From positions 1-28,858 of the forward strand of contig JAJFMC010000212.1 in the NCBI GenBank assembly GCA_021772365.1: a stretch of 28,858 nt of DNA, written 5' to 3'. The stretch is from Chlamydiota bacterium. Lineage in GTDB: Bacteria; Chlamydiota; Chlamydiia; Chlamydiales; Criblamydiaceae. How positions within the stretch are numbered: the first letter of the stretch is position 1; each line of letters opens with the position of its first letter. The notes beneath the pieces were generated by a model. The model was not told the origin of the DNA. It searched no databases and worked only from the letters and a program-made list of their open reading frames with translations. Position numbers and translations under genes: made by a program. Positions 11,250-28,858 of the stretch are shown here, one piece after another.

Positions 11250-12886
11250 GGATTCTCTTTATATTAATTTTCTCATCTTTCACCACTTTTGCAAATGGAG
11301 AATCACTTTCCAAAGGGGAAAAGAAGCGAATACAGGTGGAGGCTAAAAACCTCGGTAAAAACTCGATAAACGATGTCTTTAAAAGCTTAGAAGGTTTTTG
11401 TTTATCGGATGACCTCTTACCCGAGAAGGACAAGGGGAAAGAGTTTGATGGTAAAAAGGCTAAAGAGGATGTTTTAACCGGCAAGGTGAAGTCTAATCCT
11501 GTTGTCGAATTTCTCGAGGAAAATTCTATTGTAAATAGCTACCTGTCTGAAAACGAAATGCTCTTTTCTGATGAGCTTAACGAGGTAGGTTCTGAAGAGG
11601 GAGAGTATCTAGAGGTTTGCAAAGAGTCGGCTGACCCCGTCACCTTCCATTTTACAAGGACTCTAAATTACGATTTGGAAAAAGAGCTTGAAAAAGTGAT
11701 GGTATTAAAGTGCTTAGGACATAATGAAAGTAGAAAGGTAACTAGGGGGAAGGGAGAATCAAAAGCCAAGAAGAAAAGTAAAACGTTTGAGTCAGACCAA
11801 AATATTAAATGGTTTAAGGTGAAAAATTATAAAAAGGGATCTGATCATCACGACGTCGTTGAATCAAACTGGAGACATGTTGATGACTGTTTGTCATGTT
11901 CTCACAATGAAAAAGTAGTCGAATTTAGGGAAACCGGTTCATGGAGAATCATCAATGAAAAATGGGAGTACAGTAATTCATCAATCAAGAAGATCGCTTA
12001 TGACTCTAAATCTAGGTTGGTTTCTAAAAAATGCTTAGATAATGTTGCGAGAGATATTAATGGAACAAAACTTTCTCAGTGCTGGGTAGAGAGATTTGAG
12101 TTCATCTATACCCCAGAAAAAGTTTCTGGATGTGATTTTCTAAAAAGTCAATTCTGCAAGCTTAAATTAAGCGAATGCTTAAAAAATGGCCCATTTGGGT
12201 GTGATCTGTGGAAGAGAACCTTCAGTTGTTACAAAGCACTTAACCGTAAAAAACAATACGAATTAGATAGTGAAGATCTTGGGTTGGCAGATTTTATAGT
12301 GGAAGGGGTGTACGAACCAAACGAAAGTTTATCAGACGTTACAACGAAGCTCCAAATATTCAATGAAATGGATAAGGATCTACAGAACACAGATATGATA
12401 GATACCCAAAATTTTGAGTTTTTCTCAGGTAAGAAACACCGTTGCTACGTAAATTTTTTAGGAGATCTAGTTTATGATTGCTGCAATAAAATGGGGGGGC
12501 TAGCTGTCGATGCAGTAATGTCAAAATGTGATGAAGAAGAGTTAGCCTTATTGGATCTAAATAATCGAGGACAGTGCCACTATGTTGGGAAAAAAAATCA
12601 TTCTGAGCTTGGTGTGAAAGTGTCTAAGAAGAAGATTTTCTGCTGTTTTTCTTCGAAATTAGCAAGAATATTTGTTGAAGAAGCGAAAGACCAACTGGGT
12701 TTAACTTGGGGAACAGCAGAAAAACCTGATTGTGGGGGATTATCTCAATCTCAAATTCAAGAGGTAGATTTTGATAAAATCAATCTATCTTCGGCATTTG
12801 AAGTCCCGGCAGCTGACTTCAATGAACGTATCAATAGACTCCAACAAAAGATATCAGATGGGTTGAAACAAGGAGAGAAGAATTGA
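11243..12886 (+). CDS. traN: TraN mating-pair stabilisation protein
   Basis: Start reassigned to ATG 11243 (signal peptide MVRILFILIF). C-terminal FFSG..C...DCC, CHYVG, FCCFSSKLARI, WG.AEKPDCGGL, DFDKINLS. Confidence 0.9.
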   Translation: MVRILFILIFSSFTTFANGESLSKGEKKRIQVEAKNLGKNSINDVFKSLEGFCLSDDLLPEKDKGKEFDGKKAKEDVLTGKVKSNPVVEFLEENSIVNSYLSENEMLFSDELNEVGSEEGEYLEVCKESADPVTFHFTRTLNYDLEKELEKVMVLKCLGHNESRKVTRGKGESKAKKKSKTFESDQNIKWFKVKNYKKGSDHHDVVESNWRHVDDCLSCSHNEKVVEFRETGSWRIINEKWEYSNSSIKKIAYDSKSRLVSKKCLDNVARDINGTKLSQCWVERFEFIYTPEKVSGCDFLKSQFCKLKLSECLKNGPFGCDLWKRTFSCYKALNRKKQYELDSEDLGLADFIVEGVYEPNESLSDVTTKLQIFNEMDKDLQNTDMIDTQNFEFFSGKKHRCYVNFLGDLVYDCCNKMGGLAVDAVMSKCDEEELALLDLNNRGQCHYVGKKNHSELGVKVSKKKIFCCFSSKLARIFVEEAKDQLGLTWGTAEKPDCGGLSQSQIQEVDFDKINLSSAFEVPAADFNERINRLQQKISDGLKQGEKN

Positions 12887-12912
12887 CTATTCACTATTAA
12901 CCACATAGTCAA
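12883..12912. promoter_or_regulatory. Perfect 8-bp inverted repeat TTGACTAT-N14-ATAGTCAA
   Basis: Arms at 12883-12890 and 12905-12912; the left arm overlaps the traN stop. Confidence 0.55.
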
Positions 12913-12936
12913 AGAATAGGAGGGTTAAGAAAAAAG

Positions 12937-12991
12937 TTGACTTGTAATTATGTGTATGGATAATTCCTTTATATGGAAGAATATATACACA
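12937..12991 (+). promoter_or_regulatory. abiE promoter with overlapping inverted-repeat operator
   Basis: TTGACT (12937-42), 16 bp, GATAAT (12959-64). 17-bp arms at 12951-67 and 12975-91 match at 13/17 positions and cover the -10. Confidence 0.6.
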
Positions 12992-13002
12992 GGATTGTTT
13001 AA

Positions 13003-13764
13003 ATGAATAAGGTGAAATTACTTAGAGAATTGGTTAACAGTGGTTTAAAGATATTTTCTTTAAAGGATGCAAGAGAAATGGCCATAAAAATTGGTTTAAA
13101 CGAAAAATCGGTTACAAAAATCCTTTATCATCTAAAAAAAGATGGATGGATAGAACCCATAAAAAATGGGGTATATTCTATCACCTCCGAGTCGGGTTTC
13201 GGACCACATCCTCATGATTTTGAGGTTGCCATGGCTATAGTTAATCCGTGCGCGATTAGCCACTGGACCGCTCTTCACTATCATCATCTCACCCAGCAAA
13301 CACCTAATATTATTTATGCAATCACCCCGATAGGGAGTACAATTCCCAATAAAAAGAAATCGATTTTTCACTTTGTTCGATTAAAAAAAGATCGCTATTT
13401 TGGGATTCAAAATGTCTGGATGGGAGAGGCGAAGGTTCAAATAACAGATCCGGAGCGAACGCTATTGGACGGCTTATTACATCCGCAATATTGCGGAGAT
13501 TTCAACGAGGTACTTCATGCGTTCAAGGTATGTGGAAGTGGTCTTGATCTAGATAAAATTGTTACATACTCTAAAAAATTAGGGGTCGCAACCGTGAAAA
13601 GGTTGGGATTTATATTAGAATCCCTCGGGGTAGATAATAAGTGGTTAAAAACCTTGGAAGAAGTGCCTGTTAACGGAATAAGAAAACTAGACCCAAGTGG
13701 TTCAACAAAGGGGACTAAAAGTAAAAGATGGAAAATTATTGAAAATATTGGAGGCGAATCATGA
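13003..13764 (+). CDS. abiEi: Type IV TA antitoxin, AbiEi family (wHTH + C-terminal domain)
   Basis: LKKDGWIEPIKNGVY wHTH, AISHWTALHYHHLTQQ, ITDPERTLLD. Confidence 0.88.
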   Translation: MNKVKLLRELVNSGLKIFSLKDAREMAIKIGLNEKSVTKILYHLKKDGWIEPIKNGVYSITSESGFGPHPHDFEVAMAIVNPCAISHWTALHYHHLTQQTPNIIYAITPIGSTIPNKKKSIFHFVRLKKDRYFGIQNVWMGEAKVQITDPERTLLDGLLHPQYCGDFNEVLHAFKVCGSGLDLDKIVTYSKKLGVATVKRLGFILESLGVDNKWLKTLEEVPVNGIRKLDPSGSTKGTKSKRWKIIENIGGES

Positions 13765-14639
13765 CTTTAAGTCCTCTTAGAAAAAGGTTAGATTCTGCAT
13801 CAAAAAAATCAGGCATCCGTCTTGACGTCATTCAGCAAGATTACTTACTGTCTTGGATTTTAGCGGGAATTTCACAGACTCCTTCTTTAAGTAGCTACTG
13901 TATTTTTAAAGGAGGAACAGCTCTAAAAAAGTGCTACTTCGGGGAATATCGGTTTTCTGAGGATATAGATTTTACTGCATTGAATGAGCTTCCATGTGGT
14001 GATGAATTAGAGGGTGAAATCAAAAAAGCTGTGAATATCGCCTCGGAAATGATCAATGAGTTCGCACCCGTTAAACTAAGATTTAGTAGATACAGTGAAA
14101 AATACCCTCATCCAGATGGCCAAGAAGCCTTTTCTATTTATGCTCAATACCAGTGGCAAAATCACCCACTAACGAAAGTCATGATTGAGATTACTAGAAA
14201 CGAGGATATGGTTTTAGAAAGCACAAAAAGAAGGATGATCCATTTATATGGTGAAGATATTGAAATTGATCTTCTTTCTTATTCATTAGAGGAGATTGTT
14301 CTTGAGAAGCACAGAGCGATCCTTCAGCACACCAAAAAATTGTACGAAAGAGATTGGGGGCGCTCCAGAGCCAGAGATTATTATGATCTTTGGAGGATAT
14401 TTAAGACGTACAAAGAATCACTTCAATTAGATGATTTTAAAAAAAATCTTATCCAAAAATGCAGCAAAAAAGAAGTGTTCTTCAAGGACTCGAATGATTT
14501 TTTTCAACCGATCACTTTAAATAATGTGAGGAAAACATGGAATCAGTGGCTAGGTCCTCTGGTTAAGGATCTTCCTAATGTAAATATCGTAATCGAAGAT
14601 CTTCAAGATATTGTGAGAGACCTTTTGGAGGAACAATGA
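13761..14639 (+). CDS. abiEii: Type IV TA toxin, AbiEii-family nucleotidyltransferase
   Basis: QDYLLSWIL, FKGGTALKKCYF..YRFSEDIDF, EK.RA, RARDYYDL. Confidence 0.92.
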   Translation: MTLSPLRKRLDSASKKSGIRLDVIQQDYLLSWILAGISQTPSLSSYCIFKGGTALKKCYFGEYRFSEDIDFTALNELPCGDELEGEIKKAVNIASEMINEFAPVKLRFSRYSEKYPHPDGQEAFSIYAQYQWQNHPLTKVMIEITRNEDMVLESTKRRMIHLYGEDIEIDLLSYSLEEIVLEKHRAILQHTKKLYERDWGRSRARDYYDLWRIFKTYKESLQLDDFKKNLIQKCSKKEVFFKDSNDFFQPITLNNVRKTWNQWLGPLVKDLPNVNIVIEDLQDIVRDLLEEQ

Positions 14640-17447: not shown

Positions 17448-20147
17448 ATGACCAATGAAATGACAATCATCACATATGGAGGCGGAGAGATCTTATTCAA
17501 GTTATTTACTGGAATAAAGATGGTCTTCGATAGTGGATTCATTAAATGGATGTCATATTGCATGGCATCGATTACGGCTGTATATGTGATTTATTTGTCA
17601 TACTTTAAGCCACATCCTGATCATCTAACGAAGAATTTTCTTTTTCCCGTATTAGCTCTTGTTATTTTATGTTTCAATGTAAAAACCACGGTTTATATTG
17701 AAGATTGTCTCCCTCTTTCCCAAGGGGGAATCAATTGGACTTCAGGTAATCGCAGTCAAAATACGGAACATGTAGCTCAACCTTCCAGAAGTGTTGATGG
17801 GGTTCCCTTTATCATTGGTTTCCTCTCGAAAACAATAAGTTCTTTGGGTTATCAAATGACTCTTGCTGTCGAAAGCGTTTTTCACGAGGTTGATGATGAA
17901 AAGTACTCGAAAACTGGGATGATTTTTGGCGCAGAAACCGCCCTAGATATGAATGAAATTGTGATCAATGATGGAAATTTGGACAGTAATCTACGCACTT
18001 TTTGTAGAAACTGTATGCTTTACGACTTGGCGTTAAATCTCTATACCCTAAAAGACTTGAAAAACGAAACAAATCTACTAGATTTTCTAAAGGAAAGAAC
18101 AGCAAAAAGCCGTTATATGAATTACATTGATAATTCTTCAGAACAAACTAAATTGATTTCATGCAAAGAGGCTATCGAGAATATCTCAAAAAAACTCGAA
18201 AAGGGTGGCCCTGAAGTAGCACATCAACAAAACAAGCAAATCTTCAGAAATTTACCTATAGCCTATCAAGCATTGACTAAAGTGTCTGGAGATAGCGAAG
18301 AGATCATCAAACAGCTTCTTGTGATGAGTGTTGTAACCGAAGAGATGTCTTCTCAAGCCTTCGCCTCCAAAAGAGCAGCTCTTCAACAAAAAACTACATG
18401 GAAAACTATGGGCGGTATCGCTGATGGATTGGTTATTACAACTCGTTGTGTAATAGAGTCCTTGATTTATGGAGCTGTTCTCTTCGTGATCCCTTTGTTG
18501 TTCCTTCCATCAGGGTTTACTTATTTGAAAACATGGGTTTGGCTTTTGGTGTGGATTCAACTATGGCCTCCATTTTATGCGATTTTAGATTATATAAGTT
18601 TGATAGCTGCTAGGGGACAATCCGATGGACTGTTTGATTCCAGTAGGGCTAATACTTGCTGTCTTTCGATATATAATACGATTGGCCTTTCCAATGTTTA
18701 TGGAAATATCTCGGCTTACGCAAAATCCATGAAAATTCTAATTCCCCCACTATCTTATGCCATATTACAGGGGGGAGTTGGATCCTTTGTCCATCTCACA
18801 AGCTCAATGATGGGAGCTTCTCAGCAGGCTGTTTCTCAGGCATCATCTGACGAGATGTCGGGGAATTACAGCTTTGCTAACGCAAGCATGGACACCAAAA
18901 ATTTTTCCAATGCTACTTACGGACAACAAAATTATGCCTCCTCAACTAAATCAGGTTTTGTTAGCAGAGAGTCAATAGGGGAAAAAGTTGATTTTTCCTC
19001 TGATGCAAGCGTCATGCAAGAGAAACGTACAGATTTGTCTCATGGTTTTTCCGTTGATGAATCATTTAGAAGTAGCTTAGCAGAAAACCTTACAACTTCA
19101 CAAACAGCGCATGAATCTTCAGCAAGAAGTCTAAATGAGAGTATCTCAAATACAGGAAGAGATGCTAAGGATTTCACTTCCCATGTAGCTCATGACTTAA
19201 GTTATAGCACCTCTGATTCCACAAGTGAATCTTTTGAAGCATCAAAGGCCGCACAATTCATGGAAAATAAAGCGGATACATTTGCAAAAGACCATCGATT
19301 AAGTTCAGATGCCTCCTGGGAAATTTTTGGATCAGTTGGAGCGGGTATCCCCGGTACAGATGTTAGAATGGGAATTAGCGCAAAACACGGGATTACTTCA
19401 AGCGACACATGGAACGACGCCTTATCCGTCAGTGAATCTACTGAATATCGAGAGGCATTCAATAAAGTAGAAAACTTTGCAAAGAATTTCTCACAGAATT
19501 CTACTGATGGGGAGGGGGAGAGAATGGCGACATCATTTACTCAATCAGTTGATCAGATGAGATCGGACTCTATGCAATATTCAACAACACTTGATAATAT
19601 GAACCAATCTTCGCATGCATCCAGCTTCTATAACGATTGTTCTCTATCTGAAAGACAGGATTTAACGCAAAAATTTCTGGATTTTGCAATTGATGAGAAA
19701 GGATATAGCATTAATCAATTTCCCAATAAAATTATGGAAGATTCAGTGGCCTCCAAGGAATTAGTTCAAGACTTTACTTCTGCTCTAATTCCTAAGATAG
19801 AGGCCCCTCAGGATTATATCGATCCGGAAAATTTTTACAGGGGATCAGTTGAAAGTATCGAAAATCAATCGACTATAACGACTTCTGTAAGTTCAGAGCG
19901 GTTTGGAAGCATGAATATGGGGGGATCTGTGAAAAATGATGTTGCGGAGAAGCTGTTGGTAAAACAGAACCATAACAATAAGTTTGAAGATACAAGAGAT
20001 CTGATTAGTGAGGCAAAAGATTTGGTTCATACAAAAACGGTTGATAAACAACCAGTTAGTTTAAGGGAATTAGACCTTGAGATCAATTGGAATCAGTCAT
20101 TTGATGATGATGTTGCACCTAACTATAGTTACTGGTGGGGAAAATAA
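17448..20147 (+). CDS. traG: TraG (F-type, VirB6-like N-terminus)
   Basis: IITYGGGE, VDGVPF, WIQLWPP.YAIL, multiple TMs, Ser/Thr-rich C-terminal half. Confidence 0.92.
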   Translation: MTNEMTIITYGGGEILFKLFTGIKMVFDSGFIKWMSYCMASITAVYVIYLSYFKPHPDHLTKNFLFPVLALVILCFNVKTTVYIEDCLPLSQGGINWTSGNRSQNTEHVAQPSRSVDGVPFIIGFLSKTISSLGYQMTLAVESVFHEVDDEKYSKTGMIFGAETALDMNEIVINDGNLDSNLRTFCRNCMLYDLALNLYTLKDLKNETNLLDFLKERTAKSRYMNYIDNSSEQTKLISCKEAIENISKKLEKGGPEVAHQQNKQIFRNLPIAYQALTKVSGDSEEIIKQLLVMSVVTEEMSSQAFASKRAALQQKTTWKTMGGIADGLVITTRCVIESLIYGAVLFVIPLLFLPSGFTYLKTWVWLLVWIQLWPPFYAILDYISLIAARGQSDGLFDSSRANTCCLSIYNTIGLSNVYGNISAYAKSMKILIPPLSYAILQGGVGSFVHLTSSMMGASQQAVSQASSDEMSGNYSFANASMDTKNFSNATYGQQNYASSTKSGFVSRESIGEKVDFSSDASVMQEKRTDLSHGFSVDESFRSSLAENLTTSQTAHESSARSLNESISNTGRDAKDFTSHVAHDLSYSTSDSTSESFEASKAAQFMENKADTFAKDHRLSSDASWEIFGSVGAGIPGTDVRMGISAKHGITSSDTWNDALSVSESTEYREAFNKVENFAKNFSQNSTDGEGERMATSFTQSVDQMRSDSMQYSTTLDNMNQSSHASSFYNDCSLSERQDLTQKFLDFAIDEKGYSINQFPNKIMEDSVASKELVQDFTSALIPKIEAPQDYIDPENFYRGSVESIENQSTITTSVSSERFGSMNMGGSVKNDVAEKLLVKQNHNNKFEDTRDLISEAKDLVHTKTVDKQPVSLRELDLEINWNQSFDDDVAPNYSYWWGK

Positions 20148-21820
20148 TGACTGATGTGATGAAATCCATAGCGGAAGGAGGGCAAACTTGGGCGCACAGG
20201 ATGCGCATGATCCGTCAGGTTCTTAAGATTATAGTATTAACCTCTCTATTTATCCTTTTGGCAACGGTTGTTTCTTCTATGCTGTGGAATAACAGCTCTT
20301 TGCTCATAGCACTTTATTACAACGTAAAAGCATCGCTCGTCTCTGTGTTTGATAATCAGATATTAATAGATCCTCATCTTTGGAAAAAGGTGACTGGGAT
20401 TTCACATGGAAATAGAGAACTTACCATGTCTGTCAGTAGAGTATTAAAGATAACAAATCCTCAAGTGGATAAACTTTATGCCGAATTTTTGAAAAGCATG
20501 TTCTTGGGATTGAAGATCTTTTCTGTTAGCACGCTAATGATGCTCTCATATTTTTTACTCCGTGGACTTAGCTCGAAAAGGAAAAAGCATCTTTCAGGAT
20601 CAAAAATTGCAAATTCCATGATTCTCATATTAAGGCTTTACCTTTTCAGAAAAGCATCAAATATAAAAATTGGATCGCTTCCATACGTGATAAATACAGA
20701 AACGAAACACACCCTTATAACTGGTGGAACGGGAAGCGGAAAAACAAATTGCCTTCATCACATTCTGTCATCAATTAGAGAATCTAAAGCAAAAACAATT
20801 GTGATTGACACAACCGGAACATTTGTCTCACGTTATTATCGAGAAGGAAAAGACATCATTCTTAATCCCTTTGACGAAAGGGGAGTTGCATGGAGTCCAT
20901 GGGCAGACTGTGAAGATAGATTTGATTATGAAGAAATGGCCGAGAGTTTTATTCCTATATCTAATAGAGAAAGTGAGGGATACTGGAGAACAGCAGCCAA
21001 GTCTCTATTTTCTTCCCTATTGCAAAAACTAGATGAGACTAAAAGAATATCCGATCTTGTGCGATGGGTTCTTTTTTCTTCCCTTCAAGATTTAAGCGCC
21101 TTTGTAGAGGGGACAAAAGCCGCTTCTCACATAGATATCAACTCCGAAAAAACCGCAGGTTCCGTCCGTTCTGTAGCCTCTTCCTTTCTAGAATGCCTAG
21201 AATATCTAAAAGATACAGAGAATCCCTTTTCCATCAAACAGTGGATCAAAAAAGAGGATGACTCTTGGCTCTTTATTAGCTGTAAACCATCGCAACGTGC
21301 TTCCATAGCCCCTCTTATCACCAGCTGGATCTCCATTGCCGTTAGGGGAGTCCTCTGTCTAGAGCCATCAAGAACACGCCGTATTTGGTTTGTCCTAGAC
21401 GAGCTTCCAACCCTAAACAAGGTCAAAGGTTTGGAAACACTTCTGACAGAGGGCCGTAAATACGGGGCATGCTCACTTTTAGCCCTACAAAGCCCCTCTC
21501 AACTAGATTCAATCTATGGCAGAGATATTTCTCATATAATCGCGGGTAATTGTTCTACAAAGATCGTTTTTTCAGAGTACGATCCTGAAATCGCAGAGCG
21601 TATCTCAAAAGTTTTTGGTAAAAGCGAAATAGAGGAGTATCAAGAAGGCATCTCCTACGGAGCTCATGAGATGAGAGACGGAGTTAACATTTCCCGTCAA
21701 AAGAAAAACCAAGCAACTGTTTCAGCTACTGACATCCAAAATTTACGTCCAAATCAGGCGTATGTAAGGTTATCAGGGAAGATTCCTATTACTAAGCTGA
21801 AATTGAAGATTGTTCGGTAA
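20147..21820 (+). CDS. traD: TraD type IV coupling protein
   Basis: ATG 20147 overlaps the traG TAA. Walker A GGTGSGKT, LNPFDER..WSPW, Walker B WFVLDELPTL, GRKYG, EGISYGA. Confidence 0.93.
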   Translation: MTDVMKSIAEGGQTWAHRMRMIRQVLKIIVLTSLFILLATVVSSMLWNNSSLLIALYYNVKASLVSVFDNQILIDPHLWKKVTGISHGNRELTMSVSRVLKITNPQVDKLYAEFLKSMFLGLKIFSVSTLMMLSYFLLRGLSSKRKKHLSGSKIANSMILILRLYLFRKASNIKIGSLPYVINTETKHTLITGGTGSGKTNCLHHILSSIRESKAKTIVIDTTGTFVSRYYREGKDIILNPFDERGVAWSPWADCEDRFDYEEMAESFIPISNRESEGYWRTAAKSLFSSLLQKLDETKRISDLVRWVLFSSLQDLSAFVEGTKAASHIDINSEKTAGSVRSVASSFLECLEYLKDTENPFSIKQWIKKEDDSWLFISCKPSQRASIAPLITSWISIAVRGVLCLEPSRTRRIWFVLDELPTLNKVKGLETLLTEGRKYGACSLLALQSPSQLDSIYGRDISHIIAGNCSTKIVFSEYDPEIAERISKVFGKSEIEEYQEGISYGAHEMRDGVNISRQKKNQATVSATDIQNLRPNQAYVRLSGKIPITKLKLKIVR

Positions 21821-21917
21821 CGGGGATAGGGGTGAGATTGTCGCACACCGACCGAATCCGACCCCTCAATAAATGGATATCTAATGATAGGCAGAAATCA
21901 GAAAAAAGGTCCATTTT

Positions 21918-22036
21918 TACGTATAGTAAATCCAAGGCACTTTTTTTTAATGTAGATTGATTTCCAGTATCTTATGAAATGAGCTGTTTTGTTGAAGTTT
22001 GAATTGGAAAAAACGTCTAATTTTTGTTGGGCGCTG
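21918..22036. repeat. 119-bp direct repeat, copy 1 (IS-end-like)
   Basis: tacgtatagtaaa...tttttgttgggcgctg; three mismatches to 25445-25563. Confidence 0.95.
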
Positions 22037-22040
22037 ACTG

Positions 22041-22826
22041 AATTTTGGGCGTCAAGCGGATAGGCATGGTTTGCAACATTAGCAGCTTGTGGTGGAAAGT
22101 CGACTAAAGATGAACACAATCATGAAGCGGGTGAAAAGCCTAATGCACACGAGGAACACTCAGGGGAAGAAGGTGGACACGGCGGTCAGGAAGAGGCAGG
22201 TATTAGGGAAGTTCATCTTTCTGATTTCAAATTTAAGAGTCTTGGAATACGTGTCGATTCGTTGCCAAATAGAAAACTATCTGGGGTAGTTTATGCAAAT
22301 GGTCAGCTGGAAGCGCCTCCACAGCACGAAGCAACGGTTACTGTAATATTGGGAGTGAATATTCAATCAATAAAAGTAATTGAAGGAGATCAAGTCAGAA
22401 AAGGACAAACTTTAGCCTATTTAGCGCATCCTGATTTGAGTAACCTTCAGGCTTCATACCTTAAAGCCTATAATCAAAGTTTATATCTCGAAAAAGAGTA
22501 CAAACGCCAAAAACGATTGTATGAAGAAGAGGTCGGTTCAGGTAAGCAGTTTCAGGAAGTGGAATCGAAATACCAATCTGTAAAAGCTGAAATGATGGCG
22601 TATGAATCGCAATTAAAGCAGCTCAGTCTGAGCGTAACAAATATCCGTGAAAGGAAAATTTATGATCAAATTTCAATTGTCAGTCCAATTGATGGATACA
22701 TTGAAAAATGTGTTGATTCAAATTGGACAATATGTTTCTCTGTCAACTACATTTTTTAAGGTTGTAAACCTTACAGTAAGTGGAATATGCGACAAATACA
22801 CTAAATTAACCCCCTTAGGAAAATGA
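22041..22826 (+). pseudogene. Degraded Bacteroidetes-type RND periplasmic adaptor (CzcB/CusB-like lipoprotein)
   Basis: Frame open from 22064: ..ATLAAC-GGKSTKDEHNHE..EVHLSD..GQLEAPPQHEATVT..SPIDGYIEK. No start codon, an apparent +1 frameshift in the signal region, a +1 frameshift at about 22709 (continues VLIQIGQYV) and C-terminal loss. Confidence 0.8.
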
Positions 22827-25324
22827 AAAAACTACAAATACAAATACCCCTCATTCTGCCTGAAGTACCTGATGAAAAAGATGAATGTGTACATAAACTG
22901 ATTAGTCTCATTCATGATGTCGAAGGCCTGCAAAAAGTACATGTGGCAGATGAAACTGACAATGGAGTGCCACAGCTTTGTTTTCATTACGATCCTGAGA
23001 AGATTTCCCTTGATCATATTCTAAAGTTAGCTAAACGTACAGGGGCTTCCATTATTGATAAATACGGTCATCAATTGATTGAGGTAGAAGGGATTCGTCA
23101 TACTCGTCATGCCAGAATAATTGAAGAAGCACTCAAGAGATTAGATGGAGTTTTAGAGTGTGTAGTGTCTGCTTCGGGTATGATCCGATTAGAATTTGAA
23201 ACGGCAAAAATTGAAAAAACGGAAATCCTTAAATTACTGCGTAAGGAAGGTTTAGACATTATTACTACAGAAGTACAAGTCGAACGGTATATAAGAAAGA
23301 CTGCCGATAACGATGTAGAGGTCAGACAAAATGAAGAAAAAGACCGCAATGACCATGAGGAAGGCGAAGGACATAATCATTCCCACGAGGGAGTTTTTGG
23401 TAAAAATACGGAGCTAATTTTCTCCATTATTTGTGGAGTACTATTGGGTATTGGGTTCGGACTTTCCTTTGTGGAAACGATTCCTTCTTGGGTAATCCTG
23501 TCACTCTACATTGGGGCGTATTTCTTCGGAGGGTATTTTACTGCCAAAGAAGCAATTCAAACAGTTGCAAAAGGGGGCTTTGAGATTGATTTTCTCATGC
23601 TGGTGGCTGCTATTGGAGCAGCTATTTTGGGTGAATGGGCAGAAGGTGCCTTGTTGCTGTTCCTGTTCAGCATGGGACATGCCTTGGAACACTACGCCAT
23701 GAACAAAGCCCGTAAATCCATTGCCGCTTTAGCAGAACTGGCTCCTAAAACGGCCTTGCTTAAGAAAAATGGGAAAATAGAAGAAATAGATATAAAAGAA
23801 CTGAGCCTTGGAGACATCATTGTAGTGAAGCCCAATAGCAAAATTTCAGCTGATGGGGTGGTCGTCAGAGGTACAAGTAGCGTTAACCAGGCTCCTATAA
23901 CCGGGGAAAGTGTACCTGTAGACAAAGAACCTGTGGATGATCCCGATAAAGACTGGTCGCAGGAAAAAGACATCAAGGATGAGAACCGTGCTTTTTCAGG
24001 TACGATCAATGGTAACAATACACTGGAAATCAAAGTGATAAAAGTAGCGAAGGACTCTACACTCTCTCGCCTGGTGAAATTGGTCAATGAAGCCCAGACC
24101 CAGAAATCACCTACCCAGCGGCTCACCGATAAATTTGAGAAGTATTTTGTGCCTGCTGTTTTGGTACTGGTGGTCTTGCTCAATTTCGCTTTTCTGGTCA
24201 TTGATGAAAGCTTTAGCGAAAGCTTCTACCGCGCCATGGCAGTACTGGTTGCTGCCAGCCCTTGCGCTTTGGCCATAGCCACCCCGAGTGCCGTGCTAAG
24301 TGGAGTAGCCCGAGCAGCCAAAAGTGGGGTGCTTATAAAAGGCGGGCGTCCATTGGAAGATTTAGGAGTACTTACTGCCCTGGCTTTTGATAAAACCGGA
24401 ACACTAACAGAAGGTAAGCCTAAGTTAACGGAGGTGGTACCCCTGAGTGATGTGAAAGAAGATGAACTACTGAAAATAGCAGTGGCTGTAGAGAGTCTCA
24501 GTGATCACCCTCTGGCAAAGGCCGTAGTGCGTGATGGGAAAGAGCGACTGAATGATGCTGACATACCAGTAGCGAAGGACCTTGAAGCCGTGCTTGGCAA
24601 GGGGATCAAAGCCACACTGGGTAGTGACAAAGTTTACATTGGCAACCTGGATCTGTTTGAGTCGCTGGATGACAAGAAGCCATCAAAGGAAACAGAAGAA
24701 AAAGTAAAGTCTTTAGAGTCTGATGGCAATACCACCATGCTCATCCGACAGAATGACGATTACATAGGCATCATAGCCTTGATGGATACGCCAAGAAAAG
24801 AAGCCAAAAACACCCTGGAAAAACTGAAAAAGATGGGTATCAAGCGCATGATCATGCTTACTGGAGACAATCAGAAAGTGGCCGATGCGGTAGCCAAAGA
24901 AATAGGGCTTACAGATGCCTGGGGAAGTCTCTTGCCCGAAGAAAAAGTGGATGTAATCAAAAAATTGAAAGAGCAAGAATCCAAAGTAGCCATGGTGGGC
25001 GATGGCGTAAATGATGCCCCGGCCATGGCCAACAGTACAGTAGGTATCGCTATGGGGGCAGCAGGAAGTGATGTAGCTCTGGAAACTGCGGACATTGCCC
25101 TGATGGCTGACAAGCTGGAAACCTTACCTTTTGCAATCGGTTTAAGTAGAAAGGCCAAAGGCATTATCAAACAAAATCTCTGGGTGAGTTTAGGAATAGT
25201 GGGTATTTTAATTCCACTTACTATCTCCGGCATTGCAACCATCGGGCCTGCTGTTTTAATACACGAAGGCTCAACCTTGGTTGTAGTATTCAACGCATTG
25301 CGATTGTTGGCTTATAAAAATTGA
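22823..25324 (+). CDS. cadA: Heavy-metal-translocating P-type ATPase (P1B; SPC/HEGST, CadA/CzcP-like)
   Basis: TGES, SPC, DKTGTLT, SDHP, GDGVNDAP, HEGST. N-terminal HMA-like domains and a His-rich linker. Confidence 0.95.
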   Translation: MKKLQIQIPLILPEVPDEKDECVHKLISLIHDVEGLQKVHVADETDNGVPQLCFHYDPEKISLDHILKLAKRTGASIIDKYGHQLIEVEGIRHTRHARIIEEALKRLDGVLECVVSASGMIRLEFETAKIEKTEILKLLRKEGLDIITTEVQVERYIRKTADNDVEVRQNEEKDRNDHEEGEGHNHSHEGVFGKNTELIFSIICGVLLGIGFGLSFVETIPSWVILSLYIGAYFFGGYFTAKEAIQTVAKGGFEIDFLMLVAAIGAAILGEWAEGALLLFLFSMGHALEHYAMNKARKSIAALAELAPKTALLKKNGKIEEIDIKELSLGDIIVVKPNSKISADGVVVRGTSSVNQAPITGESVPVDKEPVDDPDKDWSQEKDIKDENRAFSGTINGNNTLEIKVIKVAKDSTLSRLVKLVNEAQTQKSPTQRLTDKFEKYFVPAVLVLVVLLNFAFLVIDESFSESFYRAMAVLVAASPCALAIATPSAVLSGVARAAKSGVLIKGGRPLEDLGVLTALAFDKTGTLTEGKPKLTEVVPLSDVKEDELLKIAVAVESLSDHPLAKAVVRDGKERLNDADIPVAKDLEAVLGKGIKATLGSDKVYIGNLDLFESLDDKKPSKETEEKVKSLESDGNTTMLIRQNDDYIGIIALMDTPRKEAKNTLEKLKKMGIKRMIMLTGDNQKVADAVAKEIGLTDAWGSLLPEEKVDVIKKLKEQESKVAMVGDGVNDAPAMANSTVGIAMGAAGSDVALETADIALMADKLETLPFAIGLSRKAKGIIKQNLWVSLGIVGILIPLTISGIATIGPAVLIHEGSTLVVVFNALRLLAYKN

Positions 25325-25444
25325 AAAAAAGCACATTCAAAATAACCAAAATGGACTGCGCCTCCGAGGAGCAAATGATCCGTATCAAGCTGGAAGGCTT
25401 TAGTCAGGTAAAGCAGTTAGGGTTTGATATTCCAAACCGGAAAC
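25321..25444 (+). pseudogene. 5' fragment of HMA-domain cation transporter (CDF-type), truncated by the repeat
   Basis: TTG overlapping the ATPase stop reads MKKSTFKITKMDCASEEQMIRIKLEGFSQVKQLGFDIPNRKL, then enters repeat copy 2. Resembles the recalled Bacteroidetes MDCxSEEQMIR N-terminus. Confidence 0.65.
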
Positions 25445-25563
25445 TACGTATAGTAAATTCAAGGCACTTTTTTTTAATGTAGCTTGATTTCCAGTATCTT
25501 ATGAAATGAGCTGTTTTGTTGAAGTTTGAAATGGAAAAAACGTCTAATTTTTGTTGGGCGCTG
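25445..25563. repeat. 119-bp direct repeat, copy 2
   Basis: Same orientation as 21918-22036; 116/119 identical. Confidence 0.95.
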
Positions 25564-26072
25564 GAAGCCATAAATATATGGGTTTTTCTTTAGAAATTTC
25601 TTGTTTCTGACAAAAATTGGCTATTTCAAAATAGAGGGGAGCCTTCGACTTCTAGTCATGCCTTATCAACGAAGGAGGTTTCATAGGCAATTATCTCCCA
25701 GATCCACATACTCAGTTTCTTCAAAAAAAGGGTGGGATTGTGGAACTCAAATGTTGTGAAAGCTTGATAACTGGCTATCAGTTGGATTACTAGTGAATTT
25801 TTTCCGCAGGAAACTCGAATGGAAAAGACAACAAAGTAACGAAGAATATTTAGATTCACAGTGAACTGTAGAATCTGTACAGTCTTGATTTTTCATGTCG
25901 TTGTATCGTTGAAAAAGGCTGGGCTTAAACGGATTATTTCTACCTAGTCAGTCAAGCACTTAAATAATTTTAGAATAACATTTGTAAAAAATGAGGATAT
26001 TCACGATGATCCAATCAGTAATATAGAAAGGTGAATTATTAAATATTAAATAAATCGGATTGGTTCTATTGA

Positions 26073-27350
26073 ATGTGTAACTATAGAATGAGTAGTGTTA
26101 TTTTAACTATCTGTATAACAGTCTTTTATCACTTCCATTTACCTGCAGATACAATTCAATCCCATTCGGCTATTACACTTAGAGATGCTCTATCTTTAAC
26201 TCTAATGCATAATCCTGAACTTAAAGGCTCCATTTATCAGATACGATCCAAAAAGGGAGAGGTAATCCAATCGAGTTTAATACCGAACCCTGAAATTGAA
26301 GGAGAGATCGAGGATTTTGGAGGAGGGGGTGTTTTTTCTGGTTTTGATTCTGCTGAGTCAAAAATACGACTCAGTCAGCTTATTGAATTGGGGGGAAAGA
26401 GGCATAAAAGACGTAGAGCAGCCTGTTATGACAAATCTCTAAGTTATTGGGATTATGAAACAATAAAATTAAATGTCTTGGAAGGAACAACGAAGGCGTT
26501 TCTGAAGGTTCTTTTTTCTCAAGAGAGAATAAAATTGGTATCTGTCATCCATGATTTAGCTGAAGAAGTTTATGAAACGGTGAAACAAAGAGTTCAAGCT
26601 GGAAAAGACTCACCTCTCGAAGAATCGAAAGCTAGCATAGCTTTATCGACAACGCAGATTGAAAAAGAAAAGGCAGAGAGAAAATTATTATCAGCAAAAA
26701 AACAGTTAGCTTCCTTTTGGGGTAACGACCATTTTGCCATTAGCGAAGTAAATGGTTATATTGACCAGCTTGTTACTATCCCTGAGTTCGAAAAATTACT
26801 GCCATGTATCATAAGAAATCCCGACCTTATTAGATATAACGATGAGTTTAAATATCGCAAAGCAGTCGTTGAGTTAGAAAGGTCTAGAGGGATACCCGAT
26901 ATTACAGTGAGTGGTGGGGTAAAAAATTACCAAGAGACAGATGATTATGCTTTTATTGTGAGTTTCTCAATACCCATTCCAATATTTGACTGGAATCAGG
27001 GGCGAGTTTACAGTTCACGATCTCAGTTACACAAAACCCAAGAAAATTATATTTCTACAGAAGTGTTCATCAAAACAAGGCTATACGAAGTCTTTCAAAC
27101 TCTTTCTAATAGCCATTACGAAGCAGAAGTCTTAAGAAATCAAATCTTACCCAAAGCTCAATATGCATTTGAGGCTTCGAATATAGGGTATCGCGAGGGC
27201 AAATTTGATTATCTAGATGTTCTTGATGCCCAAAGAACGTATTTCAGTGCAAAAATTCAATATCTCGATATTTTACTGGGTTATCATTTGGAGCTTACAG
27301 AACTTGAACGCTTGATTGGTGGATCCCTCGAAAAAGTGGTGAGGTTATAA
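26073..27350 (+). CDS. czcC: TolC-family outer membrane factor (CzcC-like)
   Basis: PNPE, SQLIELGGKR, PDITVSGG, SIPIPIFDWNQG, GKFDYLDVLDAQRT. Start may be 26088. Confidence 0.88.
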   Translation: MCNYRMSSVILTICITVFYHFHLPADTIQSHSAITLRDALSLTLMHNPELKGSIYQIRSKKGEVIQSSLIPNPEIEGEIEDFGGGGVFSGFDSAESKIRLSQLIELGGKRHKRRRAACYDKSLSYWDYETIKLNVLEGTTKAFLKVLFSQERIKLVSVIHDLAEEVYETVKQRVQAGKDSPLEESKASIALSTTQIEKEKAERKLLSAKKQLASFWGNDHFAISEVNGYIDQLVTIPEFEKLLPCIIRNPDLIRYNDEFKYRKAVVELERSRGIPDITVSGGVKNYQETDDYAFIVSFSIPIPIFDWNQGRVYSSRSQLHKTQENYISTEVFIKTRLYEVFQTLSNSHYEAEVLRNQILPKAQYAFEASNIGYREGKFDYLDVLDAQRTYFSAKIQYLDILLGYHLELTELERLIGGSLEKVVRL

Positions 27351-27351
27351 A

Positions 27352-28542
27352 ATGAAAAATATGAAGGTTCTATTCATTGGATTGCTCTTTTGTATTGGAG
27401 CCATTGTTATAGCTGTATGGTGGACTTCTAGTGAATCCGGTTCCCCTAATAGCGAAAAACACCATGAGGAAGAAGATGGTGAAAGACATGTTCTTTTGTC
27501 AAATGATGAAGTTGAAGAATTTGAAATAGAAACCGAAGTGGCTAAACCTGGAACTATCGAAGCTATTGTCACCCTATCCGGTGAGGTTACATTCAATGAA
27601 AATCAGCTGGCTCATATTGTCCCTCGTGTGGACGGTGTCGTTAAAGATGTGACTATAGCCATTGGAGATCGTGTAGAGAAAGGACAACTCCTTGCAACAA
27701 TTGAAAGTAGGGAGCTTGCTGATCTAAAAGGGGATCTCCTACAGGCAAATGAAAGGTTGAAGTTGGCAAGGAGTCAGTTCGAAAGAGAAAAAGGACTATT
27801 CGAAAAGAAAATCACTGCTGAACAAGAATTTCTTGATGCGAAAAAAAACCTTGAAGAAGAAAAAATAAAATTGCTGTCGGCTGAAAATAAATTGCGTGTG
27901 ATTGGATTTGCTAATGAAGAAATTGAGGGTTTTAAATCCGGAAAAAAACACACCTCAACGTTCTATGATATGCGTTCACCTATTTCGGGTACAGTCGTTC
28001 AAAAACATCTAACCCTTGGAGAAAAAATTGATAGCAGTACCAACGCTTTCACCATAGCAAACCTTGGTAATGTATGGGTAAATTTAACTATTTATCAAAA
28101 AGATCTCGATAAAATCGAGCTTAATCAACCTGTAACAATTTTTTCTAAATCAAAAATTCTAAAAGCATCGGGAAAGATAGAGTACATTAGCTCTTTTTTG
28201 GACGAACAGACACGCACGGCAACGGGAAGAGTGGTATTAGGAAATGAGTCAAAAATCTGGAAACCAGGAATGTTTGTTTTAGGTAAAGTCTCAGTGGGTG
28301 AGAAAAATGTACCGACAAAAATACTTCGATCGGCAATCCAAATGATGAATGGACAAGAGGTTGTGTTTATCAAAAAAGGGAATTCTTTTCATCCGGAAGC
28401 GGTTACATTGGGACAAAAAGATGATAATTTTATAGAAGTACTTTCAGGATTGGAAAATTCCCAGGAGTATGTGAAAAAGAACGGATTCGTTTTGAAGGCT
28501 GAGCTTGAAAAGGAGTCATTTGGTGGTGGGCATAATCATTAA
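27352..28542 (+). CDS. czcB: RND membrane fusion protein (CzcB-like)
   Basis: N-terminal TM, His/Glu-rich segment, HIVPRVDG, MRSPISGTV, WKPGMFV, C-terminal GHNH. Confidence 0.88.
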   Translation: MKNMKVLFIGLLFCIGAIVIAVWWTSSESGSPNSEKHHEEEDGERHVLLSNDEVEEFEIETEVAKPGTIEAIVTLSGEVTFNENQLAHIVPRVDGVVKDVTIAIGDRVEKGQLLATIESRELADLKGDLLQANERLKLARSQFEREKGLFEKKITAEQEFLDAKKNLEEEKIKLLSAENKLRVIGFANEEIEGFKSGKKHTSTFYDMRSPISGTVVQKHLTLGEKIDSSTNAFTIANLGNVWVNLTIYQKDLDKIELNQPVTIFSKSKILKASGKIEYISSFLDEQTRTATGRVVLGNESKIWKPGMFVLGKVSVGEKNVPTKILRSAIQMMNGQEVVFIKKGNSFHPEAVTLGQKDDNFIEVLSGLENSQEYVKKNGFVLKAELEKESFGGGHNH

Positions 28543-28563
28543 TAATAGACTCCGGAGAGGTTT

Positions 28564-28858
28564 ATGTTAAAAAAACTTATCGATATAGGCTTACATAATC
28601 GTTTATTGATGACTATATTGATGGTAATAGTGATGGCTGCTGGGTACTGGTCTTATCGGAACATCCCTGTCGACGCCTTTCCAGATGTCTCTCCAAATTT
28701 GGTTCAAATTTATACAACGACAGAAGGTCTTGCTCCTGAAGAAGTAGAAAAGTACGTTACGTACCCTATCGAAGTTGCTATGACAGGGCTTCCCGAGATT
28801 GAAAAAATCCGGAGTGTTTCCAATTTTGGACTCTCTGTCGTCAATGTATACTTCAATG
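28564..28858 (+). CDS. czcA: CusA/CzcA heavy-metal RND pump, N-terminus (partial, window edge)
   Basis: MLKKLIDIGLHNRLL..IPVDAFPDVSPNLVQIYT...GLAPEEVEKYVTYPIEVAMTGLP..RSVSNFGLSVV. Not in the ORF track because it has no stop within the window. Confidence 0.92.
   Translation, partial: MLKKLIDIGLHNRLLMTILMVIVMAAGYWSYRNIPVDAFPDVSPNLVQIYTTTEGLAPEEVEKYVTYPIEVAMTGLPEIEKIRSVSNFGLSVVNVYFN

Follow-up and report, generated by a model that had tools for sequence, protein, structure and literature searches.

In CIME-like accretion, nonautonomous islands flanked by att repeats adjoin ICEs. Such att repeats are found again at the far end of the ICE and in relatives, and they usually include a tRNA or the 3′ end of a gene. 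Insertion with long target duplication was reportedly described by Nobusato et al. in Gene in 2000 (259:99). In documented cases of the class, the repeats are unique, measure 46 to 423 bp, and come without any other mobile element (Furuta, Abe and Kobayashi 2010, PMC2853133). Among chlamydia-related bacteria, Pam100G is described as an F-like tra genomic island of Protochlamydia amoebophila with 17-bp direct repeats at its ends (Greub et al. 2004, PMC548262).

The locus described here lies on a MAG contig assembled from a biofilm metagenome at about 4× depth. Within the window (the whole 28.8-kb stretch of DNA that was analyzed), a pair of 119-bp direct repeats is the sole repeat of at least 30 nt. 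The pair encloses a foreign metal-resistance fragment just downstream of a conjugation operon.

Structure of the 119-bp repeats

Two same-orientation copies of a 119-nt sequence, reported in a preliminary description of this DNA as differing by three mismatches and starting with TACGTA, were found again at the following positions.

21918..22036, + strand, repeat copy 1 (R1), 119 bp, 32% G+C; Logan contig X1 record 2 covers 21797-22036 with zero differences
25445..25563, + strand, repeat copy 2 (R2), 119 bp; Logan contig X2 record 15 covers 25400-26076 with zero differences

The copies start 3,527 nt apart, enclose an insert of 3,408 bp, and are identical at 116 of 119 positions. TACGTA opens and TTGGGCGCTG closes both, and sequence identity between them ends abruptly on all 4 of 4 sides. 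The mismatches lie at repeat positions 15, 39, and 87 (C/T, A/C, and T/A). These three mismatches are equally compatible with copies from different molecules. At its right end, the repeat carries a TTGAAG-18-TCTAAT motif, which might drive the ATPase gene.

The preliminary description had considered the repeats to be possible relic IS ends. The minus-strand terminal CAGCGCCC does loosely resemble an IS end, and minus-strand frames stay open through the repeat. However, no inverted repeats were found within or between the copies, and the start TACGTATAG does not match the reverse-complemented end CAGCGCCCA. No short target duplication lies outside the unit (21910-21917 versus 25564-25571). Pfam and NCBIfam searches of all ORFs crossing the repeat, at E values up to 10, returned no transposase family and no coding remnant. 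That two copies should decay independently to the same 119 bp is very unlikely, and further copies were absent from the MAG and from the other collections searched (see below). It is therefore extremely improbable that the copies are the termini of two independently degraded insertion sequences or of a composite transposon. The repeat did not fit an insertion sequence, composite transposon, or MITE for the lack of terminal inverted repeats, a transposase remnant, a target duplication, and extra copies, and the suggestion of relic IS ends was not supported. The companion observations, that the unit has no terminal inverted repeat pair, no flanking target duplication, and no recombinase inside, were borne out by the flank comparison and by Pfam analysis of all ORFs of the unit.

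Other identities were considered for the repeat. GTTGGGC is its only word fitting the integron GTTRRRY core. A hairpin or attC-like structure was absent, the single-strand fold energy being weaker than in 200/200 shuffles (z +2.2), and neither a reverse transcriptase nor an integron integrase was found among the window ORFs scanned. An integron cassette (attC) was rejected because there is no hairpin and no integrase among these ORFs. IS200/IS605-type ends and riboregulators were rejected because the repeat has no Rfam match at E values up to 1, no hairpin, and a fold weaker than those of the shuffles. A diversity-generating retroelement TR/VR pair was rejected because no reverse transcriptase was found among these ORFs and the three mismatches are not adenine specific on either strand. 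Pfam analysis of 20 large ORFs from across the window, every ORF of the unit among them, gave no recombinase, and no tRNA was found. These results, and the absence of repeats around cargo in relatives, speak against the att site of a site-specific integrative element; a recombinase acting in trans is possible, with seven tyrosine recombinases elsewhere in the MAG.

A BLAST search of the source MAG (61% complete) at word size 9 recovered the two copies and no third. Genomes of the order (60 relatives, then 400) gave just chance matches of 20 to 40 nt. No copy of the 119-mer was present in plasmid and phage collections, and the repeat was absent from 80 Bacteroidota ATPase loci taken with 10 kb of flank on each side. 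Exact 22-mer scans of 185,579 species genomes and exact 26-mer scans of JGI metagenomes, which are blind to copies below about 97% identity, detected no copy. The preliminary description had envisaged further copies leading into a transposase or flanking other cargo; none turned up in the MAG or in the collections searched.

The insert and its outer flanks

Sequence similarity marks the 3.4-kb insert as part of a metal island from marine Bacteroidota, comprising a czcB fragment, an intact P-type ATPase gene, and the start of a CDF gene.

22037..22063, no strand, 27 unassigned bases from R1 to the first recognizable czcB codon, with an in-frame TAG at the end
22064..22736, + strand, czcB′ pseudogene, RND periplasmic adaptor of Bacteroidota type (Pfam HlyD_D23); 65-71% nt identity to Bacteroidota czcB, ending at 22736
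22823..25324, + strand, intact heavy-metal P-type ATPase, 833 aa (Pfam E1-E2_ATPase and Hydrolase)
25321..25444, + strand, CDF transporter gene fragment with an HMA-like N terminus; first 42 codons, cut in frame at copy 2 base 1

As had been noted, the gene next to copy 1 has lost its start. This gene is czcB′, which opens inside the signal peptide at AWFATLAAC and is separated from the repeat by the 27 unassigned bases. These bases are either filler or the decayed 5′ end of czcB. They show no significant similarity to the rest of the window; their resemblance to the end of the repeat gave a p value of about 0.04, and a templated origin was without support. czcB′ carries a frameshift near 22710, and comparison with the donor gene order indicated that its C-terminal half was deleted together with the neighboring fur gene (about 1.4 kb). 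The ATPase retains the DKTGT, TGE, GDGxND, and HP motifs and is 85-90% identical in amino acid sequence (83% in nucleotide sequence) to proteins of Owenweeksia, Marivirga, Algoriphagus, Roseivirga, and others. In the Bacteroidota donor loci L067, L068, L044, and L081, the CDF gene directly follows the ATPase gene, the same order as in the insert. Its Bacteroidota homology stops exactly at 25444/25445, which confirmed that copy 2 cuts a gene midframe and identified that gene.

To judge from the sequence matches, both outer flanks are chlamydia-lineage DNA: traD on one side, and a decayed GxxExxY gene followed by czcCBA on the other.

20135..21820, + strand, traD, type IV coupling protein, last gene of the F-type tra operon (Pfam TrwB_AAD_bind, E 5.5e-132)
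21821..21917, no strand, spacer from traD to copy 1, 97 bp, 45% G+C, richer than its surroundings
25564..25979, no strand, noncoding stretch of chlamydia lineage, 416 bp
25656..25861, + strand, GxxExxY (PD-(D/E)XK_3) gene remnant; C-terminal half, with stops, a 40-bp deletion, and a frameshift
25980..28858, + strand, czcC-czcB-czcA efflux module (Pfam); leaves the contig end and continues on MAG contig C331

TraD shares 76-81% amino acid identity with metagenomic chlamydial TraD. Its relatives in genomes, JGI metagenomes, and a 5.8-billion-protein set reached at most 81%, and their DNA diverges completely past traD. In the related elements L121-L123, DNA homology ends at 21781-21811. Related elements lose homology at the traD stop codon and continue with unrelated cargo, so that this site is the cargo hotspot of the element family. 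No repeats flank the cargo in related elements, which carry a tyrosine recombinase about 4 kb past traD; seven tyrosine recombinases are encoded on other contigs of the MAG. The 97-bp spacer had no match in donor loci or related elements. No empty site with a single repeat copy was found in the collections searched, which hold no close relative of the element.

On the other side, neither the Bacteroidota donor loci nor L115, the czcCBA relative, matched the 416-bp stretch. The GxxExxY remnant within it has DNA matches in several genomes of the order and tblastn E values of 1e-11 to 1e-13 against full-length homologues. It matched the family HMM at E values of 2.4e-5 and 0.068, and its homologue L131 matches TIGR04256 at 7e-42. 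From 25980 on, czcCBA is 88.5% identical in nucleotide sequence to JGI contig L115 (89.5% on C331); for neighboring chromosomal genes the value is about 70%.

A MAFFT alignment gave rise to the idea that the repeat supplies the 5′ end of the GxxExxY gene, and the geometry fits (intact gene start near 25488, repeat ATG at 25501). If correct, this would have made copy 2 contiguous native sequence. The identification of the repeat as the promoter and first 21 codons of this pseudogene was rejected, since significance was not reached with an HMM of 110 family members, with a frameshift-aware alignment compared with shuffles, or with an alignment of the DNA (p values of 0.13 and 0.45).

Independent Logan contigs of two runs reproduced the traD flank with the whole of copy 1, and the CDF fragment with the whole of copy 2 and 513 nt downstream, each copy keeping its own variant letters. 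The preliminary description had raised the matter of an assembly artifact. The copy 2 junction recurs in an independent contig, but no Logan contig bridges 22036/22037, and the join of copy 1 to the cargo is seen in the MAG assembly only. In an assembly error, the tra operon with copy 1 and the cargo with copy 2 and czcCBA would come from different molecules or strains, joined via the 32 identical bases at the repeat end. The source, a biofilm MAG contig at about 4×, is consistent with such an error, as are the low depth of all four runs between about 21900 and 22400, the occurrence in no run of sampled words across 22036/22037, and a shared 32-mer longer than the Logan k of 31. In seawater run X5, one sampled 31-mer falls within 21985-22125. 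However, the truncation of the cargo genes exactly at the repeats, the internal deletion, and the frameshift indicate a resident insert and not a stray Bacteroidota contig. The join of the CDF fragment, copy 2, and downstream sequence was independently reproduced, and tra genes, cargo, and czc genes are similar in depth within each run. Even with a wrong join, the terminal bases of the repeat, at least, would precede the cargo. We consider an assembly error quite improbable.

Origin of the repeat pair

At this locus, the repeat encloses a foreign, broken-ended insert between flanks of native lineage; no IS, att, or attC features and no further copies were found in the window and the collections searched. 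The repeats look like duplicated local sequence, not insertion sequence ends. Our preference, held tentatively and at somewhat less than even confidence, is for insertion with long target duplication, in which backbone sequence was copied as a foreign fragment entered by illegitimate recombination. Since the outer flanks are native, a duplicated target sequence is the simpler reading. It is supported by the coincidence of the inner edges of the repeats with the ends of the foreign DNA (at 25444/25445 and within 27 nt of 22036), and both insert ends lie midgene, as expected of an arbitrary fragment. The G+C content of the repeat (32%), which is like that of the native noncoding flank (36%) and unlike that of the insert (43%), also counts in its favor.

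In the proposed course of events, the 119-bp repeat would have been ordinary local sequence of the variable region of the element, just downstream of traD. A marine Bacteroidota metal-resistance fragment, cut at arbitrary points within czcB and the CDF gene, would have entered by illegitimate, recombinase-independent recombination, and the event would have copied 119 bp of the target, leaving one copy on each side of the insert. Unselected parts may then have decayed: 1.4 kb and the reading frame of czcB would have been lost, and the repeats would have diverged by 3 bases, with the ATPase kept intact. We infer that the repeat was formerly single-copy target DNA, duplicated by staggered breaks with fill-in or by template switching in replication. 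If long target duplication holds, the repeat pair and insert are a rather unremarkable trace of an insertion route that is itself rare.

Alternatively, the repeat could be a portable recombination site. A circle carrying one repeat copy and the Bacteroidota fragment would have recombined with a copy already present, through homology (Campbell-type integration) or site specifically, with the recombinase supplied in trans. Single-crossover integration of a circle does give a direct-repeat bracket, the copies differ by 2.5%, as an origin from two molecules might give, and a recombinase could have come from the seven tyrosine recombinases of the MAG or from one like that past traD in related elements. 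This explanation, however, requires that the repeat lay beside Bacteroidota DNA on an earlier molecule, which means extra events, and no other copy was found. The repeat lacks a hairpin and a recombinase-type core of inverted half-sites, and the cargo of related elements has no flanking repeats. No circle, empty-site, or deletion joints were seen in the reads, at a depth of about 4×. We regard a portable site as unlikely. A translocatable-unit circle or dedicated recombination sites, as first proposed, likewise gained no support from the reads or from the repeat, which has no attC-like structure. A broader proposal is, in our estimate, very improbable. Under it, chlamydial F-type conjugative elements would have a capture system not described so far, with the repeat as its recognition site. 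The system would depend on a recombinase whose gene lies elsewhere, and it would load foreign segments of any kind into the hotspot directly past traD, as excisable units bounded by repeats.

The copies could also be all that is left of a much longer duplication, such as a cointegrate or a tandem copy of the element region, into which the foreign island was built. Deletions of the kind typical of a reductive genome would have trimmed it to 119 bp and taken away the outer parts of the cargo as well. The region is deletion prone (it has lost 1.4 kb in the cargo and 40 bp in the GxxExxY remnant and has several frameshifts and stops), and a special 119-bp staggered event would be unnecessary. Such trimming is nevertheless unlikely: two independent deletions must leave exactly coextensive copies, and the bases at the inner edges show no leftover similarity to the sequence neighboring the other copy.

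As for the nonautonomous capture unit of the preliminary description, a recombinase-less, repeat-bracketed foreign cargo with genes broken at both ends was indeed found, while the mechanisms proposed for it were not supported. Its loss or amplification by homologous recombination is possible in principle via the 97%-identical 119-bp direct repeats.

Significance and comparison with known systems

If the long-target-duplication reading is true, restriction-modification and toxin-antitoxin genes are not the only cargo of this little-understood insertion route, which can also fix arbitrary broken DNA from another phylum inside the conjugative element of an intracellular bacterium. The locus bears on gene uptake by chlamydia-related bacteria from neighbors such as marine Bacteroidota, and the repeats are such that homologous recombination could remove the acquired metal pump or raise its copy number. 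As a single orphan case known without an empty site, it represents a modest gain.

The insert shares the class features of long target duplication (PMC2853133). It is smaller than 20 kb, and the direct repeats around it exceed 30 bp and have no counterpart elsewhere in the genome (within the 61%-complete MAG). No transposase, integrase, or other mobile-element gene was found in or beside it among the ORFs scanned, and its G+C content differs from that of its surroundings. The published repeat lengths include 119 bp (PMC2853133). Unlike the published inserts, which are restriction-modification genes proven by an empty site in a sister genome (PMC2853133), the present one is broken metal-resistance cargo from another phylum, its target is a conjugative element, and it is known without an empty site.

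The arrangement is also like IS26-type translocatable units and pseudo-compound transposons, in that cargo lies between direct repeats, the unit has no target duplication, and gain or loss as a circle is possible. However, each IS26-type repeat is an entire insertion sequence of 820 bp that encodes a transposase and has 14-bp inverted ends, whereas the present repeat is 119 bp, noncoding by every test, without inverted ends, and restricted to a single locus. Like CIME-like islands, the locus is a recombinase-less block in direct repeats beside a conjugation module, but none of the recurrence, tRNA, or gene 3′ end of their att repeats was found. Finally, the setting of the repeats resembles Pam100G (PMC548262), in that their backbone is an F-type tra operon of a chlamydia-related bacterium; in contrast with the island-end repeats given there, the present repeats enclose just a 3.4-kb cargo inside the variable region.

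The repeat pair and the fragment it brackets

The two 119-nt copies of the repeat were reproduced in the same orientation, as in the preliminary description, by repeat search, MAFFT and direct comparison. They are the sole repeat of at least 30 nt within the window and lie in the following setting.

1-21820, F-type conjugation operon (TraE, K, B, C, U, N, H, G and TraD)
21918-22036, R1, left copy of the repeat
22037-25444, insert
25445-25563, R2, right copy of the repeat
25656-25861, plus strand, GxxExxY (PD-(D/E)XK_3) remnant, C-terminal half, between R2 and czcC

R1 and R2 differ at repeat positions 15, 39 and 87 (2.5% divergence), and their identity stops sharply at all four edges. It is quite unlikely that they are what deletions left of a larger duplication. 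The mismatch positions leave uninterrupted identity over 47 and 32 nt, which should permit RecA-dependent homologous recombination to delete or amplify the ATPase unit; neither outcome was seen in reads of the roughly 4x metagenome.

The insert carries one intact gene, a P-type ATPase of 833 amino acids with DKTGT, TGE, GDGxND and HP motifs. Its counterparts in marine Cytophagales and Flavobacteriales are 85 to 90% identical in protein and ~83% in DNA, and their genomes have the order czcA-czcB-(P-II)-fur-ATPase, followed by arsR-merT-(merA)-CDF or directly by CDF. In the window, czcB begins within the signal peptide and carries a frameshift, its C-terminal half and fur are missing (~1.4 kb lost), and the CDF gene is cut short after codon 42, similarity to CDF genes stopping precisely at the first base of R2. 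The 27 bases between R1 and the first recognizable czcB codon matched nothing. The truncated czcB, intact ATPase and CDF start together indicate that the insert is an arbitrary slice of a Bacteroidota island, since decayed save for one gene. A weak sigma-70-like motif (TTGAAG-18-TCTAAT) faces into the cargo from the repeat's right end and is absent from the promoter-scan listing; that it might act as a promoter reading into the cargo is speculation.

Flanking DNA of the chlamydial lineage

On either side of the repeat-insert-repeat unit, the DNA belongs to the chlamydial lineage. On the left, 34 of 300 genomes from the host's order encode a TraD homologue, and named matches in a large protein set include Protochlamydia and Rubidus. 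Identity to the nearest TraD proteins is 76 to 81%. In the elements with the nearest TraD, DNA homology to the window ends at the traD stop codon and unrelated genes follow, among them a tyrosine recombinase ~4 kb past traD; this loss of homology marks the spot directly after traD as the variable cargo region of the element family. The traN-traF interval (window 12883-14639; 390-2037 and 422-1994 in the related conjugative elements L121 and L123) is a second variable spot, with an AbiE-like pair in the window and L123 and an AAA-ATPase gene in L121 and the related L122. Directly after the traD stop, a G+C-rich stretch (21821-21880) with inverted GGGGT...ACCCC symmetry, not conserved in related elements, may be the tra operon terminator.

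On the right, the 416 bp past R2 are non-coding and include the GxxExxY remnant, which has lost 40 bp by deletion and carries a frameshift and several stops. It matches DNA in several genomes of the order and full-length homologues by tblastn (E values of 1e-11 to 1e-13), and of all peptides from a six-frame translation of the window it scored best against a 110-member family HMM; the homologue used clearly belongs to TIGR04256. Several genomes within the order encode full-length homologues, and two further remnants lie on other contigs of the MAG (C277 and C270). Beyond the remnant, czcCBA (25980-28858, continuing into contig C331:1-2852) shares 88.5 to 89.5% DNA identity with a JGI metagenome contig (L115:8629-14311), whereas other genes of L115 are only ~70% identical to the MAG, so czcCBA itself appears to have been exchanged recently, as a module, among chlamydia-related bacteria. 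A P-II-like gene follows czcCBA in the MAG and is absent from the L115 relative. L115:5587-5983 contains short dispersed repeats (~50 to 130 nt, 70 to 86% identical), unrelated to the 119-bp repeat, that are common to L115 and many MAG contigs (C44, C218, C424, C89, C86, C7, C225, C379, C420, C87, C277 and C113).

Nature of the repeat and support for its junctions

The repeat lacks both terminal inverted repeats and an internal palindrome, and as single-stranded DNA it folds worse than 200 of 200 shuffles (z +2.2), which excludes an attC site, IS200/IS605-type ends and an ordinary MITE. Nor do the three mismatches follow the pattern of a DGR. Neither an Rfam match nor a tRNA was found at the repeat, and the ORFs that cross it hit no Pfam or NCBIfam family even with E values of up to 10 allowed. 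A Pfam scan of 20 large ORFs from across the window detected no recombinase. Further copies were sought in the MAG, 400 genomes of the order, 80 donor loci, plasmids and phages, as well as by exact-word scans of genome and metagenome collections, and none appeared; because copies under roughly 97% identity escape the exact-word scans and the MAG is only 61% complete, other copies are not found rather than proven absent. With no inverted ends, no family on crossing ORFs and no further copy found, relic IS ends, as had been proposed, are hardly credible. Integration of a circle at a portable recombination site, also proposed earlier, is compatible with the direct-repeat bracket, the 2.5% divergence and tyrosine recombinases elsewhere in the MAG, but it requires extra steps and is unsupported by any second copy; we consider it unlikely.

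The window is the longest of 432 contigs in a MAG from a biofilm metagenome. Among Logan contigs, built with an independent assembler (k = 31), one from study run X1 spans 21797-22036 (the traD flank and all of R1, with R1 letters), and one from study run X2 spans 25400-26076 (the CDF fragment, the complete R2 in its own letters and a further 513 nt). None bridges 22036/22037, and none holds a circle- or deletion-type joint. Three of the four junctions thus have independent support, the exception being R1 to cargo. A second search, limited to 21985-22125, found no run holding the junction words. A misjoin at R1 in the assembly is very unlikely. At approximately 21900-22400, k-mer depth was low or zero in all four study runs, against 3.5 to 4.8x for the cargo's right half and the tra genes; possible causes are biased sequencing, polymorphism between strains in the czcB pseudogene and heterogeneity at the R1 junction. 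In X5, a seawater run from a different study, one of eight sampled 31-mers of 21985-22125 was present and may derive from the true marine czcB donor or mark another occurrence of the repeat.

Proposed insertion with long target duplication

The simplest account, which we favor tentatively, is a single event: illegitimate recombination would have placed a foreign fragment in native DNA downstream of traD and, in doing so, duplicated a 119-bp stretch of the target. Were the repeat shown to form the 5′ end of the neighboring GxxExxY pseudogene, it would be proven native. The geometry fits (an intact 143-amino-acid gene would be expected to begin around 25488, and an ATG lies within the repeat at 25501), and a MAFFT alignment looked suggestive. 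Family HMM, frameshift-aware alignment (p of 0.13 and 0.45 against shuffled DNA) and DNA alignment were all non-significant, leaving this relationship only a lead.

Such an event would fall into a published class, insertion with long target duplication (PMC2853133, which cites Nobusato et al. 2000). Its cases have unique repeats of 46 to 423 bp and inserts of <20 kb, and they lack any other mobile element. The R1-insert-R2 unit shares three of the four defining features; the fourth is an empty site in a relative, and none of the collections searched contains a close relative of this element. The locus would thus be a new, unproven case of a known, poorly understood insertion class, notable mainly for its cargo, which is a broken cross-phylum fragment and not a selfish gene pair.
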